Source of the DNA: a virus
Lineage: Duplodnaviria; Caudoviricetes
DNA length: 24,829 nucleotides
Strand: one strand, 5' to 3'
IMG/VR virus record: IMGVR_UViG_3300036713_000194
Coordinates: 1-24,829 of that record
In this document: positions 2,328 to 24,803 of the stretch, one piece after another
Position numbering within the stretch: the first letter of the stretch is position 1
Layout: every line of letters begins with the position of its first letter
Notes under the pieces: generated by a model
What the model saw: only the letters and a program-made list of their open reading frames with translations
Database searches by the model: none
Told to the model about the DNA's origin: nothing
Position numbers and translations under genes: made by a program

Positions 2328-3029
2328 ATGTCTATCACACTTGCACAATTAAGAGAAAGATCCAGAGAGCGAGCAGATATGGAAGAAAGTCAATTTGTTG
2401 ACGATACAGAATTAAATTATTACATAAACAGTTCAATCGCAGAATTGCATGATATATTAGTACAATCTTACGGAGAAGACTACTACGTAGAAGAAACAAC
2501 TTTTACTACAGTAGGCGGACAAGAATCATACGAGCTTTCAACTATATTCCCAAATAATGATTTTTACAAACTAAGAGCCTTAGACGCAAAGCTAAACGGA
2601 GACGATTACTTTACACTAAAGCCATTTAACTTTAATGAGCGTAACAGGTTTCAACACTTCGGAGTATGGGACTATATCGGAATTACAAACGTACGATACA
2701 GGCTAGTAGGAAACAAGTTAAGACTTAGCCCAGCACCAGATTCAAATATAGAAGTAAGAGTATGGTACATACCTAAAAGTACAGAACTAGTAGACGACAC
2801 TGATACATTTGACGACATCAACTACTACGCAGAATACGTAATAGTAGATGCAGCTATTAAAATGTTAAATAAAGAAGAGTCAGACGTAAGCGTACTTATG
2901 GCGCAAAAAGCAGACTTAAAAAGACGCATAGAGGAATCATCTAAAAATAGAGATGCAGGAGAACCAGAATCTATATCAGATATTTATATCGAAAATGACG
3001 ACTTTTTCTACGGTCGAACTAGGAGCTAA
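2328..3029 (+). CDS. Head-tail adaptor / connector protein (P22 gp4 / T7 gp11-like role)
   Basis: 233 aa with N-terminal TL.QLR.R.R.RADM...FV.D.EL..YIN and later L.L.P.P....V.VWY and Y.EYVIVDAAIK, the pattern typical of phage adaptor proteins. Located between head genes and the nozzle-like gene. Confidence 0.7.
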   Translation: MSITLAQLRERSRERADMEESQFVDDTELNYYINSSIAELHDILVQSYGEDYYVEETTFTTVGGQESYELSTIFPNNDFYKLRALDAKLNGDDYFTLKPFNFNERNRFQHFGVWDYIGITNVRYRLVGNKLRLSPAPDSNIEVRVWYIPKSTELVDDTDTFDDINYYAEYVIVDAAIKMLNKEESDVSVLMAQKADLKRRIEESSKNRDAGEPESISDIYIENDDFFYGRTRS

Positions 3030-3031
3030 TA

Positions 3032-3361
3032 GTGGCTCGAAATAATAGCGTAAAAGCATTTAAAAAAATAGATGCTAAAGACAGAGAAGTAAAGCAAGTA
3101 CAAGAAAATGTAGAACAATTTGCAAAATACGTTTTAAACTTTACACCATTAGACGGAGTTTTAGTAAAAGATATATGCTTAGAAGCTGGAGTATCTAATG
3201 AAATTAAGCACAAACTAGGACGCAAACCACTCGGATGGTTTATAGTAAGAAAAAGAGCAGACTCTAGAATATGGGATTTACAAGATACAAATCCTCAACC
3301 GACTACGAGTCTAAGTATAGCATGCTCCCATGCAGTACAAGTAGACATTTGGATTTTTTAG
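3032..3361 (+). CDS. Small virion/tail structural protein
   Basis: 109 aa, GTG start with AGGAG RBS. Short N-terminal coiled coil, then HKLGRKPLGW beta domain seen in fibre-associated proteins. Confidence 0.6.
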   Translation: MARNNSVKAFKKIDAKDREVKQVQENVEQFAKYVLNFTPLDGVLVKDICLEAGVSNEIKHKLGRKPLGWFIVRKRADSRIWDLQDTNPQPTTSLSIACSHAVQVDIWIF

Positions 3362-3370
3362 GAGATAATA

Positions 3371-4027
3371 ATGGCGACAACTTTTATGAATTTAGACCTA
3401 CCAACACCTACGGTCACATTAGGACCGGAGTGGGCTACAGACCTAAATACAGCTATAGAAACTATAGACTCACACGATCATACAAGCGGAAAAGGAACTC
3501 AGGTACCTACAGCAGGTCTAAATATAAATGAAAACTTAGACTTTAACTCTAATAAACCATTTAGCCTACTAAGCACTCAATACATTAACAACGGATCAAC
3601 ACTAACAGGAGCCTCAAATGCCTCATCAGTCTACGTATCTAGTGGAGATCTCTATTTTACTAATTCTGGTGGTGTTGCAATTCAGATCACCTCTGGTGGA
3701 GCTCTTGCTTCGACTCCTGGTAATGCTCAACTATTTGAGACGACGAGTGTTGCCGGCGACATCGCTATTAGCGCCTCGGATACCTTTGTTTATCTTATTG
3801 TTGATACTACTTCTCCTCGTGCTATAACCCTACCTTTAGCTAACTCAGTTTCAACAGGTAGAATTTACATAATCAAAGATGCATCTGGACAATCATATAC
3901 AAATAATATAACCGTTAATGTATCAGGATCAGATACTATAGATAATGAATCTTCTCTAATAATAGCTTCAGATAATTCAAGCACCATGATAGTTGGAGAC
4001 GGTTCTTCAGCATGGCACAAATCATAA
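3371..4027 (+). CDS. Tail fibre/spike-associated virion protein
   Basis: 218 aa. N-terminal L.LPTP....P.WA..LN....ID.HDH anchor-type motif. C-terminal ITLP...GRIYIIKD..G....NNITV....DTID domain (T4 gp9/gp10/gp34-like repeat), paralogous to 14390-14722. Confidence 0.7.
   Translation: MATTFMNLDLPTPTVTLGPEWATDLNTAIETIDSHDHTSGKGTQVPTAGLNINENLDFNSNKPFSLLSTQYINNGSTLTGASNASSVYVSSGDLYFTNSGGVAIQITSGGALASTPGNAQLFETTSVAGDIAISASDTFVYLIVDTTSPRAITLPLANSVSTGRIYIIKDASGQSYTNNITVNVSGSDTIDNESSLIIASDNSSTMIVGDGSSAWHKS
3618..3827 (+). CDS. Candidate nested (+1 frame) small membrane protein, possibly holin-like
   Basis: 69 aa; AGGAG at 3607-3611, 6 nt before ATG; two to three hydrophobic segments flanking RRR. 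Host gene codon usage shifts over the same interval. Confidence 0.5.
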   Translation: MPHQSTYLVEISILLILVVLQFRSPLVELLLRLLVMLNYLRRRVLPATSLLAPRIPLFILLLILLLLVL

Positions 4028-4036
4028 GAGGTTAAT

Positions 4037-6994
4037 GTGGCTTTACCAAAAAGACTTATATCCATTCCTTTTCAAGTTGGTATAGATACCAAAATAGATG
4101 AAAAGCAAGAAAATATAGGATACCTAAGACGGTTAGAAAATGCTATCTTTGATACCTTAAAAAAATTAAGAAAAAGAAACGGATACGAATTAATAATTAC
4201 TAAAGATATCAATAATAACTCTATATTAAATGCAAAAACTTTAACTAAATTTAGAGACGAACTTGGATTAATGACAGATAACCAATACTACTCTAGATCA
4301 GAAGCTATTGATAAATGGACAAATAAAGGTAAAATTTTTAGCGCTTTTCCAACTTCTAGCCCAGTAACTAGAGATGATTACAGCAAAAGCAATGTAGATT
4401 TAGTTTCATCAGACAATCTAAATGCATTTACATATGAAGATTCTAGAGGAATTCGGCTAACCATTAAAGACAATCAAAGTGGAAACTTTATCTTATCCGA
4501 TGCTTCTATTAGTGCCACAGGAACTAAGCCTAGAATTACTAATATCCAAAATACTTTATTTATATTCTACATAGATGGAACAGATATTAAATATAAAACT
4601 GTAAATCTAATAGCACCTACAACAATAAGCTCAGAATCTACTGCAGTCTCAGATCTAAATGCTACTGATAAAATATATGACGTTGCTGCTGCAGCAAATA
4701 AAAATATTATAAGCTATAACAACACAGGTGCAGTACTAAGCGTACTATCTGTAGATTTAATAGGAAATATAAGCTCTATCGTAACTGTAGCCGGAGAAAC
4801 TCCTAGCAAAGCTATAGACGTATATACCGACGCTAACGACAGAATACTTATAACCTACTCAAACGGAACAGAAGTAAAAATAAACATAAGAGCTCTAACA
4901 ATAACTGGAGAAATATTAGCAGCTACAGTTATAGAGACAATATCAGATGCAGTAAATGTAACTACCATTCAGCGACCAGATAGCTCAGACTACATAACTT
5001 TTTACGAAATAGAAGCAGCATCAGCTAAAGACACTTACGTAAAATCAAACACAGTAGACGTTGCTGGAACAGTAGGAACGGCATCAGTACTCATTAGAAG
5101 CGTAGGATTAGCCTCAAAAGCATTTTCAACAAATTCTAAGTACTATGTTACTACAGTGCACCAATCAACTTTGCAAAGCACATACTTTGTAGTAGAATCT
5201 GACGGCTGTATCATTAGTAAAATAAGCCCAAGCATCGGAGGCGGATTAACCCCCATGCTACCTAAAGTATCATTACTCGAAGAAAATAAGTTTGTAATAG
5301 GCTCACTCATTAAGGGAAAAACAGTAACTGACGACGGAACTTTCTTTTCCGTACTAGGAATTAACAGCACAGAACTAAACTTTAATATCAGCGATCCATA
5401 CCAAAACGACGAACTAGGAGACAACCTGCACATTACAGGCGGAACTCTTAAAATGTACGACGGTAACGTAGTAGTAGAACACGGCTTTCAATTATTTCCA
5501 GAAGACAAAGTAGATGGAGGAACAGCAACTACTGGCGGATCAATGGAAGATGGAACATACCAGTACAGCGCAGTATACGCCTGGACAGATAATTATGGAC
5601 AAATCCACAGATCAGCTCCATCTATACCTATATCAATTACTCTATCAGGAGGAACAGCTACTCAAACTCAGACAGTTACAGTACCTAGCCTTCGTCTGAC
5701 AGATAAAGAAAATGTAATAATAGAGCTTTACAGAACTGAAGCTGGCGGAACAATTTTCTACAAAGTAACTTCAACAACTAGTCCAACATTTAATGATCCT
5801 ACTGTAAACACTGTAGACGTCACAGATACGGTATCAGATACAGACTTAATAGACAATGAAATTTTATACACTACTGGTGGATTTTTAGACAATATTCCAG
5901 CCCCTTCTAGCCAAATAATAGAAGCACATAATGATCGTATATTTTTAGCAGGACTAGAAGATAGAGATAAAATAGTATTTAGTAAAATAAGAGACGAAAA
6001 TGAGCCGGTTGAGTTTAACGATACTCTATACAAATACGTATCCAACGTAGGTGGCTCTATTACAGCAATGCAGACAATGGACGACAAGCTAATAATATTC
6101 AAGCAGGATGCTATATTTTACATATCTGGAGATGGTCCAAACGATTTAGGCGAACAAGATACTTTTATTGAGCCTGAACAAGTAAGCTCAGAAGTAGGAG
6201 CTATTGATGGAAAATCAGTAGTTTTAACACCACTGGGCACCATGTTCAAATCAAGAAAAGGCATATACCTATTAGACAGAGGACTTTCTTTACAATACAT
6301 CGGAGCAGCAGTAGAAGATTTCAATGACTTAACAGTAACTAGTGCTGCAGTTATATCGGACAAAAACCAAGTCCGGTTTACAACTAGAGAAGGTGAGTGC
6401 TTAGTATACGACTTTTACGTACAACAATGGACCACTTTTGGAAATCATAGAGGAGTAAGTGCAGTAGTGCTAAACGAAGACTACTACTATCTTAGACCAG
6501 ATGCTGTACTATACAAAGAAGACGATGATAAGTTTAATGATCACGGATCTAGTATAGATCTAAGCCTTGAAACAGGATGGATATCTTTTGCACAAGTTCA
6601 AGGATTTCAACGAGTTTACAAATTTTACCTTTTATCTAAGTTTAAAAGCAAGCACAAGCTCCGCATACGAGTAGCTTATAATTTTAATGAAGCTTTTACA
6701 CAAGAAAAAATAATAGATACAGCAGATTTTACAGACGATACTGCATACGGAGAAGACTCGCCTTACGGAAATCCAATAACTAAGGCATATGGTGGGGACG
6801 GAAACGTACATCAAATTAGATTAGATTTAAAAACTCAAAAATGCCAATCAATTAAAATACGCATTGAAGAAATTCAAGACCAAGAAATAGGTGAAGGTCT
6901 TAGTATTTCTAACATGTTATTTGAGGTAGGCGTAAAAGGTCAACGACTAGCAGTCGATAGATCTAATACTTACGGAACATCAAAAGGAGAATAG
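4037..6994 (+). CDS. Tail nozzle / tail tubular protein B-like (podovirus; P22 gp10 / T7 gp12-like role)
   Basis: 985 aa, GTG start, beta-propeller-like composition. Motifs seen in podovirus nozzle proteins: N-terminal ..LENA.F....L.KRNG, H.DRIFLAG....FS, LIIFK..AIFYI.GDGP, FKS.KGIY.L, LVYD....QW..F, plus an Ig-like insert (GTYQY.AVY.W.D..G...RSAPS). Confidence 0.7.
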   Translation: MALPKRLISIPFQVGIDTKIDEKQENIGYLRRLENAIFDTLKKLRKRNGYELIITKDINNNSILNAKTLTKFRDELGLMTDNQYYSRSEAIDKWTNKGKIFSAFPTSSPVTRDDYSKSNVDLVSSDNLNAFTYEDSRGIRLTIKDNQSGNFILSDASISATGTKPRITNIQNTLFIFYIDGTDIKYKTVNLIAPTTISSESTAVSDLNATDKIYDVAAAANKNIISYNNTGAVLSVLSVDLIGNISSIVTVAGETPSKAIDVYTDANDRILITYSNGTEVKINIRALTITGEILAATVIETISDAVNVTTIQRPDSSDYITFYEIEAASAKDTYVKSNTVDVAGTVGTASVLIRSVGLASKAFSTNSKYYVTTVHQSTLQSTYFVVESDGCIISKISPSIGGGLTPMLPKVSLLEENKFVIGSLIKGKTVTDDGTFFSVLGINSTELNFNISDPYQNDELGDNLHITGGTLKMYDGNVVVEHGFQLFPEDKVDGGTATTGGSMEDGTYQYSAVYAWTDNYGQIHRSAPSIPISITLSGGTATQTQTVTVPSLRLTDKENVIIELYRTEAGGTIFYKVTSTTSPTFNDPTVNTVDVTDTVSDTDLIDNEILYTTGGFLDNIPAPSSQIIEAHNDRIFLAGLEDRDKIVFSKIRDENEPVEFNDTLYKYVSNVGGSITAMQTMDDKLIIFKQDAIFYISGDGPNDLGEQDTFIEPEQVSSEVGAIDGKSVVLTPLGTMFKSRKGIYLLDRGLSLQYIGAAVEDFNDLTVTSAAVISDKNQVRFTTREGECLVYDFYVQQWTTFGNHRGVSAVVLNEDYYYLRPDAVLYKEDDDKFNDHGSSIDLSLETGWISFAQVQGFQRVYKFYLLSKFKSKHKLRIRVAYNFNEAFTQEKIIDTADFTDDTAYGEDSPYGNPITKAYGGDGNVHQIRLDLKTQKCQSIKIRIEEIQDQEIGEGLSISNMLFEVGVKGQRLAVDRSNTYGTSKGE

Positions 6995-12513: not shown

Positions 12514-12529
12514 GTAAAAGGAGAAAGTT

Positions 12530-12607
12530 ATGATTTTACTAGGAATAGTATTATTTACCGTTATTTTATTAGAAATGTTTGAAACTGGAGACATTGAAAT
12601 TAAATAA
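12530..12607 (+). CDS. 25-aa hydrophobic peptide (absent from ORF track)
   Basis: MILLGIVLFTVILLEMFETGDIEIK*; AAGGAG RBS 6 nt upstream of ATG. Confidence 0.55.
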   Translation: MILLGIVLFTVILLEMFETGDIEIK

Positions 12608-12622
12608 CAGCTAAACTATAAT
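12594..12622 (+). promoter_or_regulatory. Sigma70-like promoter
   Basis: TTGAAA, 17 nt, TATAAT; followed by a small hairpin AGCTG-GAAAA-CAGCT (12630-12644) and the AAGGAG RBS of 12665. Confidence 0.65.
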
Positions 12623-12664
12623 AACGACTAGCTGGAAAACAGCTTAACCCAAAAGGAGTCCTTA

Positions 12665-14389: not shown

Positions 14390-14722
14390 ATGGCTTTAAA
14401 ATTTAACCCTTTTACGGGTAACTTTGACATAGTTAACGATGCTATCCCAGTGCACGACGTAGAAGCTCAAGCATCAGCCTTTAACGCTGAAGCCGGTAAA
14501 ACCTATATGGTAACTGGTACTGCCTACACCATTACTCTGCCAGCCTCACCAGCTACAGACGACTACATAGTCATAAAAGATGCAGCGGGCAATGCAAGCA
14601 CTAATAATAAAACAGTGTCAGGAAACGGCAATAATATCGACGGCAGCGCAACCCATGTTATTAACAGCGACTACGCCTCACACCGATACGTATTTGACGG
14701 ATCTAACTGGTTTATAGTATAA
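14390..14722 (+). CDS. Small fibre-associated protein
   Basis: 110 aa; N-terminal KFNPFTGNFD motif; TITLPASP...D.IVIKD..GN..TNN.TV.GNG.NIDG domain paralogous to the C-terminus of 3371-4027; AGGAGG RBS. Confidence 0.7.
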   Translation: MALKFNPFTGNFDIVNDAIPVHDVEAQASAFNAEAGKTYMVTGTAYTITLPASPATDDYIVIKDAAGNASTNNKTVSGNGNNIDGSATHVINSDYASHRYVFDGSNWFIV

Positions 14723-14924: not shown

Positions 14925-16991
14925 ATGAGCTTTATTGGTAAAAATATAAGCCTAAATACGCTTAAACAGAACGGACTAAGTGCAGCCCCAACTAGCCCCG
15001 TCGAAGGCATGATCTACTACGACGACGGTACTACAAATACTGAAGGTCTATATATATACAGAGACTCTGCCTGGGAATTTGTCGGAACAAAAATAGACTC
15101 TCAAAAGCTTAACCCCCTAGATGCCGATCCAGGCTCACCAATTCAAGGACAGTTTTTCTACTCAGATGGTACTAGCCGCTCGGAAGGCTTATACGTCTAT
15201 GACGGAACTCAGTGGAAAACAGTTGGTAGTGGGTCTAGCGGCATAAACTATATTGAAAATAACGATGCTGAAGGTGGGACTACAGGATGGTCAACATATA
15301 ACGACTCTTCTGAGGTTCCAGTCGACGGTACTGGAGGAAGTGCCAGTATTCTATTTACCGCTTCTAGCTCAAGCCCGCTTAGAGGAACTAAAAGTTTTTT
15401 AATTGAGAAAAATGGCGCAGCTTCAAGGCAAGGTGAAGGGATTAGTTATGATTTTAGCATTGAAGATGCTGATAAGGGTCAGTTAGCCGCAGTTAGTTTT
15501 GACTATAGCGTTACAGCAGACTATAGCACTGACAATATTAAAGTATATTTGTACGATGTTACTAACAGCCGACTTATAAACCTAGTTGAAGCCGGTGTAG
15601 AAGCAAAAAGCCCTGCAGGAAAGTATCTAGGATATGGAACTTTTAGTGGTGGATCAACATCTTACCGAGTTTTAGTTCACATTGGAAGCAACGATACAGA
15701 CGATTACGATATTAAAATTGACAACTTTAGAGTAGGTCCAGCAGATTCAAAGATGCTTACAAATAATAATGACGTCTACTTTTTAGGAAGGGGATCTACT
15801 ACAGGATCTATAACATCCGATGTTACTCCAATAGGCTTTACAACCGTTACGGATACTCACGATGCCTATAGTACAGACACTTTTACTGCTCCTGAATCTG
15901 GCTACTATTTAATTAATATATCCGTAAGACTGGGGACTGCTGACGATGCTTCAACCGGAGTATTCGTAAACGGAGTACAAAAACAAAAAATAATTAGCCA
16001 CTTAATTGAAAGCACTACTAGTGAAGTTGGTTCAGCTACATTATATCTAGAAGCCGGAGATGATGTTACTTTTATTAAAGGATCAGGAAATAATACTGTT
16101 ACTGACGATGCATTAAATACTTGGCTTTCAATTATTAAAATTGGAAAATCTCTCAACGAATCAGACTCAAGCGGTCGCACAGTTTATGTATCTGGACAAG
16201 GATCAACAACTGGAGCCGTAACTTCGGATGTTACCCCAATAGGATTTACGGAAGTTACAGATACTCACGGAGCTTGGAGTGGAGATCAATTTACAGCCCC
16301 GGAAAGCGGAATTTACCAAGTTTCTTCTATGGTAAGATTAATAACTCCAGACGATGGTTCTATAGATATTTATAAAAACGGATCAGTATATAAACAACTA
16401 ATACAAACACTGTCAGAAGATTCCTCATCCGGTTCTGGATCTACCTCAATAGAATTGCAAAAAGGCGACGTTCTGGAATTAAGAAAAGGTTCTGGTAACT
16501 CAACTATAAATAACGACATAAGAAGGACGTGGATAGATATTACTAAAATCGCAGAACTGCCCGATGTTATTCAGCCTAATTTTAAAAAGTTTCAGACCAA
16601 GATATTGACTTCGGATGTAACATCTAACGGAGACATATCAGATTTTCAATTTGATAATTTAACAATCGGAAAAACTTACGAAGTAAAAGGACAGTTACTT
16701 TATCAAAGTACTGCTTCTGGAGAGGCTACTTTTGAAATTAAATATAACGATGCTGCATCAGATGCAGGAAATGTATATGGAAGACATATAAAATATACTG
16801 ACTCAAGTTCTGGCTCGGAAAATGAGATGTATTATCCAAGTGTAGTTTTTACGGCTACCACAACTAGCTTATATATAAGAGCACAAAGTTCGTTTAGTTC
16901 TACTAGAAAATTATTAGGGAATGGTCTAAGAACAGAGTCTTATATTACTTTAGTAGAGCATAATAATTACACAGAAGTAGATACATTCTAA
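14925..16991 (+). CDS. Multidomain tail fibre / receptor-binding protein with tandem C1q-like domains
   Basis: 688 aa. Two P.SP..G..YY.DGT...EGLY.Y....W repeats (Mtd N-terminal-like), a CBM-like jelly roll starting NYIEN.DAE..TTGW, two F....DTH.A.S.D.FTAPESG.Y domains (gC1q pattern), and a C-terminal beta-sandwich. Confidence 0.75.
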   Translation: MSFIGKNISLNTLKQNGLSAAPTSPVEGMIYYDDGTTNTEGLYIYRDSAWEFVGTKIDSQKLNPLDADPGSPIQGQFFYSDGTSRSEGLYVYDGTQWKTVGSGSSGINYIENNDAEGGTTGWSTYNDSSEVPVDGTGGSASILFTASSSSPLRGTKSFLIEKNGAASRQGEGISYDFSIEDADKGQLAAVSFDYSVTADYSTDNIKVYLYDVTNSRLINLVEAGVEAKSPAGKYLGYGTFSGGSTSYRVLVHIGSNDTDDYDIKIDNFRVGPADSKMLTNNNDVYFLGRGSTTGSITSDVTPIGFTTVTDTHDAYSTDTFTAPESGYYLINISVRLGTADDASTGVFVNGVQKQKIISHLIESTTSEVGSATLYLEAGDDVTFIKGSGNNTVTDDALNTWLSIIKIGKSLNESDSSGRTVYVSGQGSTTGAVTSDVTPIGFTEVTDTHGAWSGDQFTAPESGIYQVSSMVRLITPDDGSIDIYKNGSVYKQLIQTLSEDSSSGSGSTSIELQKGDVLELRKGSGNSTINNDIRRTWIDITKIAELPDVIQPNFKKFQTKILTSDVTSNGDISDFQFDNLTIGKTYEVKGQLLYQSTASGEATFEIKYNDAASDAGNVYGRHIKYTDSSSGSENEMYYPSVVFTATTTSLYIRAQSSFSSTRKLLGNGLRTESYITLVEHNNYTEVDTF

Positions 16992-17541: not shown

Positions 17542-18219
17542 ATGAAAGAATATACAAAAAAAGAATTTAACCGCATTATAGCTCAGGCTAAAAAAACCAA
17601 AACTAAGGAAGAATATGAAAAATTTCGTCAAAAAATGTCTCAAGGCGCTAAAGAGGGAAAATTTAAAGTTGTTGACCGGGCTCCAGGCTTTACAGAGCGC
17701 ATTAATACCTCGCAAACCTCTAAAGGTAAAGGCTATACAGAAAAAATTTCAGACAAAAAAGTAACTAAAGGAGATTTTAGCGCTCCAAAGTATAGCGAAA
17801 AAGCCGAAGTTAAAAAAGTCTCTAAAATTAGTGACTGGGAAGATAAAATAGCTAAAGCTAGAAAGTCCTCCAAGCTTAAACGCTTGGCTAAAATTGGACG
17901 AAAGCTTAAAGGCTTGCCAGTAGTAGGCGCTATAGCAGCTCTAGCTACAGGAGAGGATGCTACAGCCGCAATGCCCATACTAGGCTCAGTAGAGTCTCTA
18001 GGTCGAGGATCAGACCTTACAGATAAGCAAAAACGTATGAGCAGAGAGCAGCAAAAGGCAGAATTTGAACGCAACGTAAGAGAAGCTAAAGAGCGCAACA
18101 AGGGCAAAAATCTACGCCCTGTATCGCTAGCCGAAAACGTGCAAAACTTTTTCAAAAAGCGCAAAAAAGAAGCAGAAGAGCGTCAGCGCCAAAAAATGCA
18201 ACAAAATACCAAAACCTAG
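17542..18219 (+). CDS. Basic hypothetical protein with central hydrophobic segment
   Basis: 225 aa, K/R-rich, with LKGLPVVGAIAALATG..ATAAMPILG in the middle. Confidence 0.65.
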   Translation: MKEYTKKEFNRIIAQAKKTKTKEEYEKFRQKMSQGAKEGKFKVVDRAPGFTERINTSQTSKGKGYTEKISDKKVTKGDFSAPKYSEKAEVKKVSKISDWEDKIAKARKSSKLKRLAKIGRKLKGLPVVGAIAALATGEDATAAMPILGSVESLGRGSDLTDKQKRMSREQQKAEFERNVREAKERNKGKNLRPVSLAENVQNFFKKRKKEAEERQRQKMQQNTKT

Positions 18220-24377: not shown

Positions 24378-24803
24378 CTATAGTAGTAACAGAAGTACGC
24401 TCAAAACACTTCCAATAGTTAATTGATTAATAGTACTTTTTTGACTCTTATTCTGCTTTTTAAGATCTTTAACAAGCTTATCTTGCTCCTTAATAACCTT
24501 ACCCTGCTTCTTAATAGCCTCATTTTGTTCTTTAGCAGTATCAATGCACTTTTCAAGCACTCCAGGGCACGTAACTATATTACTTTCTACCCTAATTTTG
24601 TTCCAGTCAATGTCCTCTTTAGGATTTTTATCCACAGCCTTATTCAGCTCCAGATCCTCTTTAGGATTTTTCTTTATCTCCTTCTGGACCTTGGTTTTCT
24701 TCAACTTGGCTTTCTTCAGCGGATTTTCCTTGACTTCCTTGGCTATAATCGGTGTACAGATCCATAAGCTCAGTATAACTGTCATTAGCTTCTTTAACTT
24801 CAC
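24378..24803 (-). CDS. Exported coiled-coil protein with signal peptide and C-terminal TM (spanin-like?)
   Basis: 141 aa, GTG start with AGGAGG RBS; MKLKKLMTVILSLWICTPIIA signal; coiled coil; ends LTIGSVLSVLLLLL. Confidence 0.6.
   Translation of the reverse strand: MKLKKLMTVILSLWICTPIIAKEVKENPLKKAKLKKTKVQKEIKKNPKEDLELNKAVDKNPKEDIDWNKIRVESNIVTCPGVLEKCIDTAKEQNEAIKKQGKVIKEQDKLVKDLKKQNKSQKSTINQLTIGSVLSVLLLLL

Follow-up and report, generated by a model that had tools for sequence, protein, structure and literature searches.

Behind a start signal as good as those of real genes, a 69-codon open reading frame (ORF) runs in the +1 frame of a phage tail-protein gene, over a bounded block of altered silent sites in that gene. 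The DNA concerned, hereafter the window, is the whole 24,829-nucleotide stretch of IMG/VR record IMGVR_UViG_3300036713_000194 (Duplodnaviria, Caudoviricetes), the record of an uncultured virus whose 24.8 kb make up a fragment of about 47% completeness. The host gene, P0001 (3371-4027, + strand, 218 amino acids), was classed from its ORF, translation, neighbours and fold as a tail-fibre/tailspike attachment-like virion protein; the nested ORF, P0002, runs from 3618 to 3827 on the + strand, stops with the TAA at 3825-3827 and translates as MPHQSTYLVEISILLILVVLQFRSPLVELLLRLLVMLNYLRRRVLPATSLLAPRIPLFILLLILLLLVL. The observation is real and statistically unusual, and the simple rivals open to test (optimal codons, a distant donor, an RNA element, an antisense gene) fail. 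The best single explanation, to which we give a probability of about 0.4 on sequence grounds, is that the ORF is a young, lineage-restricted overprinted gene for a small Leu-rich membrane peptide, and the nested frame is possibly translated.

The last +1 stop ahead of the ORF is a TAA at 3603-3605 (+ strand), from which the frame stays open through 3606-3827 with the ATG as its fifth codon. Six nucleotides ahead of this ATG stands a Shine-Dalgarno (SD)-like AGGAG (3607-3611, + strand), contributed by the host codons ACA GGA GCC (Thr-Gly-Ala). A first-pass annotation, made from the letters alone, had reported that AGGAG-N6-ATG at 3607-3620 opens a 69-codon +1 ORF and that this context resembles the start of the gene at 2003; both statements hold, the two contexts, compared directly, being AGGAG-N6-ATG in each case (AGGAGCCTAAAATG for the gene at 2003, AGGAGCCTCAAATG for the nested ORF). 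On the + strand of the window AGGAG is followed at 4-9 nucleotides by a start codon at 22 sites, 16 of which are annotated gene starts, and 11 of these 16 have the 6-nucleotide spacing. The duplex energy with the anti-SD sequence is -6.6 kcal/mol at the nested start, within the range of 26 real starts whose median is -7.3. Among 235 internal off-frame ATGs just 6, the nested start included, reach this strength, and the other five head ORFs of 4-6 codons. The nested start signal is thus of real-gene quality. Entry into the +1 frame by programmed frameshifting was rejected, no slippery site being evident by eye near 3603-3620.

Change-point fitting, profiles, codon tables and shuffle z-scores delimit in the host gene a synonymous patch, poor in A and rich in T at third codon positions (A3 and T3), from 3647 to 3823 (+ strand, host codons 93-151); by the change-point fit it ends one codon ahead of the nested stop. 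The hand counts of NTA codons among Ile, Leu and Val made in the first pass proved exact: 13 of 15 upstream, 2 of 15 inside and 11 of 16 downstream, codon 152 included (2/15 inside against 24/31 in the flanks, Fisher p=6.6e-5). Both NTA codons inside are followed by T, as had been noted, and the ATA-A at codon 152 forms the nested stop. The shift of Thr, Ser and Gly codons from A-ending to T-ending is also confirmed, and the ACG-ACG pair yields two of the three Arg of the nested product's cluster. At four-fold sites A3 falls to 4/32 in the patch from 26/51 in the flanks (p=4e-4); over 3600-3850 the AT skew changes sign (about +0.3 to -0.3) and GC climbs to 0.45, and over 3618-3827 the base shares are A 0.20 and T 0.36, compared with A 0.38 and T 0.26 in the window. 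With amino acids controlled for, the T3-minus-A3 excess here is the maximum of the window (z 4.9 for the best 45-codon frame, reached by none of 200 shuffles). The rare NCG form makes up 4 of the 16 TCN/ACN codons in the patch, compared with 4.9% elsewhere (p=0.007), and all four are read as Arg in the +1 frame. Arg150 is encoded by CGT in the window and by AGA in the seven relatives shown.

These features should not be added up as if they were separate. A T at host position 3 is a T at position 2 of the +1 frame, where it allows no stop codon and leaves only Phe, Leu, Ile, Met or Val as residues; the openness of the ORF, its hydrophobicity and the codon flip are therefore one observation. The caveat entered in the first pass, that stop avoidance is partly circular, is justified for the same reason, and the three count once.

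The patch is not an island of optimal codons of the kind used by the capsid gene, where four-fold sites favour T but Asn, Tyr, Ile and His codons favour C. Its Asn/Tyr/Ile/Phe codons end in T or C in a ratio of 10:3, which follows the genome at large (66% T) and not the capsid gene (31% T; p=9e-4), and the rare codons GCC, ACC, ACG and TCG are used. The pattern is one of A avoidance rather than of capsid-type optimisation. Nor is it an assembly artefact, which is ruled out by the identical sequence in 5 contigs from different assemblies; 18 public runs contain at least half of the sampled words.

Further evidence comes from relatives of the host gene, for which 95 loci were gathered and 22 full-length homologues codon-aligned. 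The T3-minus-A3 excess over the 45 codons past host codon 83 was scored in 72 distinct homologues: the loci L006/L050 come top (z 4.8), followed by the copies from the window's lineage at 2.8-3.4 and then by homologues at 2.2 and 2.0. The average over the family is 0.29, and 62% of the z-scores lie above zero, a slight general T3 excess in this segment. L006 carries AGGAG-N6-ATG at the same site, a patch that starts at the ATG codon (host codons 83-122) and a 44-codon hydrophobic +1 ORF. In the tree L006 and L013 are sisters (98/97), within a clade that also holds L010, L012 and L048 (100/97); the window's lineage falls outside this clade, and the four clade-mates of L006 are all devoid of the patch. 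The comparison thus supports, at the level of sequence, a second, non-sister lineage that repeats the arrangement of SD-ATG, T patch and hydrophobic ORF. A strong SD with ATG at this site occurs in three lineages (the window's, L006/L050 and L052), and all three have +1 ORFs of at least 44 codons, as do 2 of the 12 lineages with the ATG but a weak SD (Fisher p=0.02). In L052 the frame is open for 44 codons and its product is not hydrophobic. The open frame behind SD-ATG goes with a hydrophobic product in L006/L050 and in the lineage of the window, represented by 5 near-identical contigs.

The overprinting claim of the first pass had been staked on close homologues keeping the start signal and the open frame. 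About 70 of the 72 homologues have +1 stops or lack the SD or ATG, so that formally the claim fails on this count; but all are at most 61% identical and hence not close homologues, and the only close copies are identical across the ORF. Homologue searches returned no relatives between 61% and 100% identity. The L006 protein found among viral contigs only L013, at 71%, plus loci already gathered; P0001 found among genome contigs a single 28% match, in a Caldilineaceae metagenome-assembled genome; and the DNA pattern of SD-ATG plus motif was found among viral contigs only in the window's lineage, four times, and in the contig of L006. Among the 5 contigs and the public runs giving cover (five DNA runs: X14, X18, X17, X15 and X1) the host gene varies only at 3502 (G/A), outside the ORF, which gives no power for a constraint test; elsewhere between 2074 and 5241 no variant occurs either. 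A further DNA run, X3, gave no cover. The contigs from two metatranscriptome runs extend over 3000-3430 alone and are uninformative on the ORF.

A number of findings weigh against a young overprinted gene. First, the composition of the product: Leu at 25 of 69 positions and overall hydrophobicity follow mechanically from a host sequence rich in Ser, Thr, Ala and Gly that uses T3, and are not independent evidence. Second, the start signal: synonymous shuffling predicts 3.2 internal AGGAG-N5-8-ATG in the window's genes and 4 are observed, and both the SD and the ATG are built by the conserved host motif Thr-Gly-Ala-Ser-Asn-Ala in common codons. Third, the length of the ORF: in 2000 within-gene synonymous shuffles the 69-codon ATG-ORF was reached in 0.05% (p=0.0005) and the 73-codon open +1 run in 0.3% (p=0.003), which counts in favour of a gene, but with 56 gene-frames the test becomes borderline (Bonferroni about 0.03-0.17), and three further gene-frames of the window also have p<0.01. 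Fourth, the distribution: the patch is shared with L006/L050 only among the 72 distinct homologues, at no more than 61% identity, and the +1 frame has early or multiple stops both in the nearest relatives of the window's lineage (L009, L005, L048) and in those of L006 (L013, L012, L048, L010). With sister lineages closed, a real gene needs two independent births or many losses. The two nested products moreover differ in length, 69 and 44 codons, and their likeness, about 21 of 44 positions, was judged by eye only. Fifth, the product itself: a search of 5.8 billion clustered proteins with P0002 brought up 40 candidates but no relative at E<=0.01, there is no Pfam or PHROG match, and its language-model recognition is low (1108, best score 0.81) and uninformative; only residues of about 49-69 and 4-22 pass as membrane segments, on a crude scale; and there is no charged C-terminal tail, the peptide ending in IPLFILLLILLLLVL. 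As an observation apart, internal AGGAG is mildly depleted in + strand gene bodies (37 sites against 48 expected by synonymous shuffling, p=0.02), and all 37 stand in the register xxA-GGA-Gxx.

The most serious competitor, which we hold only a little less probable than the overprinted gene, is that the ORF is a by-product of local synonymous recoding with another cause. Selection or mutation would have stripped silent A over about 60 codons, the SD-ATG would be an accident of the Thr-Gly-Ala-Ser-Asn-Ala motif, and any peptide would be functionless. T3 by itself is enough to make the +1 frame hydrophobic and free of stops: in the capsid gene (155-1360), rich in T3 at 0.49, a 91-codon open +1 run exists from the same mechanical cause and without a second gene. 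Internal SD-ATGs are expected by chance at the rate given above, and the absence of the ORF from sister lineages and the slight T3 excess across the 72 homologues also fit.

The genome of L006 (G001) adds a further argument for such a by-product. In a scan for T3 islands of 185 genes in four genomes, with a threshold of z>=4.5, bounded islands turned up nowhere but in the fibre gene of the window and in the fibre, terminase and adaptor genes of G001. The island in the terminase large subunit (L099:8479-9951, i.e. G001 28479-29954) covers host codons 151-217, from Walker B to motif III, with T3 0.60 and A3 0.07; at z 6.2-6.7 it contains a 67-codon ATG-started hydrophobic +1 ORF with no good SD. 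The adaptor gene (36155-36838) has an island of z 4.7. The G001 patches behave like that of the window at Asn/Tyr/Ile/Phe codons. The terminase island is missing in six relatives, the window's own lineage included, and relative to the sister genome G004 it has normal amino-acid identity and lowered codon identity; the same terminase segment leans the same way in G003 and G004 (z 1.8 and 1.4). All three G001 patches lie on conserved protein segments and have open +1 frames, and one genome-level process is more economical than three new genes. Several patches in one genome imply that patches can be a property of the genome, which makes L006 weaker as an independent replicate. Either G001 holds several young nested genes, or there is a genome-level process that makes islands and L006 is not a clean replicate.

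On the other side, no cause for such recoding was identified: capsid-type codons, structured RNA, Rfam families, an antisense ORF and promoters or terminators all gave negative results. The explanation also leaves unaccounted for that the two strongest patches among 72 homologues stand directly behind a strong SD-ATG which is itself rare (3 lineages), that rare NCG codons are enriched, and that the residual NTA codons all fall in non-stop contexts. A bolder extension of the overprinting hypothesis would turn the G001 islands round: this phage group would repeatedly give birth to hidden +1 membrane peptides, behind strong internal SD-ATGs that arise by chance in conserved virion and packaging genes, through selection for A-to-T recoding of the following 40-70 codons into a Leu-rich frame without stops, having done so at the fibre-gene site independently in two lineages and again in the terminase and adaptor of one, as a case of parallel early de novo birth. 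We regard this as unlikely.

Less probable still is an origin of the patch by gene conversion or recombination, with a relative that uses T-ending, A-poor codons as donor and the ORF as a passenger. Tail-fibre genes are mosaic, with the N-terminal part of ~110 residues joined to varied C-terminal parts, T3-rich family members do exist (e.g. L016, T3 0.51-0.57, L034 and L038), G001 has several homing-endonuclease-like genes, and two conserved host motifs flank the window's patch. Mosaic recombination is in fact seen in the window's population, a further difficulty for an overprinted gene: clusters of single-nucleotide polymorphisms (SNPs) separate the window from other contigs at 1628-1798 and from 5242 onward, next to identical DNA. 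However, no donor was found among the 95 loci or in the phage collection, and blastn of 3000-4400 against 50,697 phage records gave no match. The same relatives are nearest inside and outside the patch. Between the window's lineage and its nearest relatives (L009, L005 and L048, 58-60% at the amino-acid level) amino-acid identity is 0.61 in the patch and 0.53-0.61 outside; between L006 and its sister L013 it is 0.80 in the patch and 0.60 and 0.76 outside, normal for the clade, while distant T3-rich relatives reach 0.33-0.56 in the L006 patch. A patch that agrees with the phylogeny in this way requires as donor a very close relative with a very different codon usage. What has changed is codon choice: at identical residues in the patch, codon identity is 0.12-0.39 for L006, compared with 0.39-0.66 for five of the six patch-free clade-mate pairs and 0.35 for the sixth. 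Neither is there a tract common to the window and L006, their nucleotide identity in the patch (0.60-0.62) being no higher than in the flanks. The first-pass annotation had named a recombined patch from a T-biased relative as one of the findings that would sink its claim; it was sought and not found, amino-acid identity being equal inside and outside the patch. Sequence comparison indicates that the patch is silent-site turnover in place, not an import from a distant T3-rich lineage.

That the patch is a nucleic-acid element constraining silent positions (a structured or protein-binding RNA, an antisense transcript or gene, a DNA site) is very improbable: the compositional change is sharp, strand-asymmetric and recurs at the same place in two lineages, but these are just 60-62% identical across it, RNA folding is no better than in shuffles (z -0.17 and +0.48), Rfam gave no match at E<=1, the longest antisense open run over the patch is 34 codons, and no promoter or terminator excess was found at the patch. 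A diversity-generating retroelement target was also rejected, as A is lost at third positions while the protein is conserved; there was no reverse-transcriptase match among the 76 G001 ORFs scanned.

If an overprinted gene it is, ribosomes would start at the internal ATG 3618 on the late fibre mRNA, and the product would enter the host inner membrane through an N-terminal (about 4-22) and a C-terminal (about 49-69) segment. The synonymous recoding of the host frame would have been driven by selection acting on the +1 frame, where non-polar residues were favoured and stops disfavoured. On the Kyte-Doolittle scale, a crude hydropathy measure, a span of 19 residues gives 2.5 for residues 49-67 and 1.8 for residues 4-22 of P0002, and 1.25-1.5 for the middle part, which contains Glu and Arg. 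From hydrophobicity alone one may guess at roles in lysis timing or holin modulation, in membrane depolarisation, or in the exclusion of other phages.

The holin-like, lysis or exclusion function proposed in the first pass found no support: besides the lack of a family match and of a charged tail, Cys is missing from P0002, and the scanned ORFs of the window gave neither an endolysin nor a holin match. The window is about 47% of the genome, so that the lysis cassette may lie outside it. In G001, by eye, a separate 64-residue ORF with two hydrophobic segments and a charged tail is more holin-like, and a lysin-like ORF is also present; the nested peptide is thus not needed as a holin there. A specifically lytic role of the nested peptide is, at best, rather improbable on this evidence. 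Elsewhere in the window, the 141-residue ORF at 24378-24803 (- strand) starts with a signal and a segment like a lipobox, continues in a coiled part rich in Lys and ends in a hydrophobic tail; by eye it resembles a unimolecular spanin, with a similar ORF at 41460-41771 of G002; both its same-strand alternative frames are unusually open, and the gene call may need checking.

Among known systems, the closest analogue in mechanism, by analogy and not by family, is gene E within gene D of phiX174, likewise a same-strand +1 ORF wholly inside an older gene, with its own start signal in a translated gene. The T3 bias of phiX174 is genome-wide, whereas the bias here is a 59-codon island in an A3-rich gene. 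Here too host T3 becomes position 2 of the new frame and gives a Leu-rich, putative membrane segment, just as the T-rich third positions of gene D give the Leu-rich protein E according to a review (PMC8227390). The two differ in that the host here is a tail protein of a double-stranded (ds) DNA podophage, from a group in which genes of the ordinary lysis type seem, by eye, to be present; the sequences are not similar, and the nested ORF is kept in only 2 of about 70 lineages. Rz1 of phage lambda, an o-spanin, is a small +1-frame gene inside Rz with its own ribosome-binding site; to this extent it is like P0002, a small +1-frame ORF embedded in a gene of a tailed dsDNA phage behind a ribosome-binding site of its own. 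However, Rz1 is secreted as a lipoprotein by virtue of a lipobox Cys, the gene that encloses it is a lysis gene and its partner in function, and embedded spanins are conserved across relatives, whereas P0002 is without Cys, hence without a lipobox Cys, its host is a virion protein of the tail, and the ORF is not conserved among relatives; P0002 lacks the marks of an Rz1-like o-spanin. Holins and pinholins are comparable in size to the nested products (44-69 residues) and in having one to three hydrophobic segments, but P0002 ends in LLLLVL without a charged hydrophilic tail, adjoins no endolysin gene and matches no Pfam or PHROG holin. As for chance off-frame ORFs in T3-rich genes, the capsid run described above is similar, but the capsid bias is gene-wide and of the high-expression type (C-ending Asn, Tyr and Ile), whereas the patch is a bounded island of another type behind a strong SD-ATG.

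Should the nested frame be translated, a tailed dsDNA phage would be shown to hold an overprinted gene of very recent origin, inside a structural rather than a lysis gene, and the second, independently arisen copy at the same site would offer a rare chance to date how silent-site recoding gives rise to a membrane protein and to compare the event between lineages. Small membrane proteins with a possible effect on lysis or exclusion would then also be escaping the usual annotation of environmental phages. If it is not translated, bounded A-to-T silent islands on conserved segments of fibre, adaptor and terminase would be an unexplained codon-usage phenomenon, and such islands yield convincing false overlapping genes, which matters for screens of hidden ORFs in phage genomes.

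The window carries an SU10-like podophage structural module, with Pfam SU10_MCP at 155-1360 and SU10_adaptor at 2328-3029, and the host gene lies in its tail module, two genes past the SU10-type adaptor. The AlphaFold2 model of the host protein, made from a 19-sequence alignment, has a mean pLDDT of 80.8 (an earlier model from 5 sequences, at 53.5, was too poor for use). Its top Foldseek match is the CBA120 tailspike TSP4, residues 1-335 (E 2.8e-7, TMq 0.38), followed by baseplate chains of phage KP1 and by T4 gp9 (1e-3) and gp10 (7.5e-2); the protein also has a weak PHROG match to 'baseplate protein', and a PDB sequence search with the host alignment gave nothing below E 0.6. The N-terminal ~110 residues are the sole part in common with fibre and spike relatives of 396-877 residues, and across the family, whose members range from 185 to 877 residues, this part is joined to many different C-terminal parts. 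The host is thus a small attachment-type tail protein of the fibre/spike class, to judge from the modelled fold, the shared N-terminal module and the position in the tail module. The earlier label of 'virion fibre gene' is about right, given a fold of the TSP4 N-terminal and T4 gp9/gp10 type and an N-terminal module shared with fibre and spike proteins. A paralogue of host residues 140-213 (42% identity) is found at 14501-14707 (+ strand), inside the gene at 14390-14722, whose 110-residue product matches tail-fibre and tailspike PHROGs; similar second copies exist in G001 and G002.

Several minor observations concern other parts of these genomes. Relative to four other contigs of the same phage, the window has 10 SNPs in 170 bases (1628-1798) and about 67 in 1.4 kb (5242-6640) and is identical between; on sequence grounds both clusters have the look of tracts exchanged by recombination within the population. 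Three paralogous ORFs in tandem in G001 (L098:10342-12150, - strand) have C-terminal halves of low complexity, made of Ala, Ser, Tyr and Asp, with T3 at 42-44 of 45 codons. A second nested ORF with a good start is found in the window at 17615-17764 (+ strand), in the +1 frame of the gene at 17542-18219: with a duplex energy of -6.0, 49 codons and a very basic product, it is the only other internal off-frame ATG-ORF of the window with an SD energy of -6 or below and at least 30 codons. The gene at 14925-16991 (+ strand), with BclA_C/C1q-like domains, contains a 78-codon open +2 run (p=0.007 by synonymous shuffling), in which the ATG-ORF has just 4 codons. Finally, a free-standing 25-codon ORF at 12530-12607 (+ strand) stands behind AAGGAG-N6-ATG in the otherwise empty gap 12514-12664; its hydrophobic product, MILLGIVLFTVILLEMFETGDIEIK, suggests that it may be an unannotated gene for a small membrane protein.

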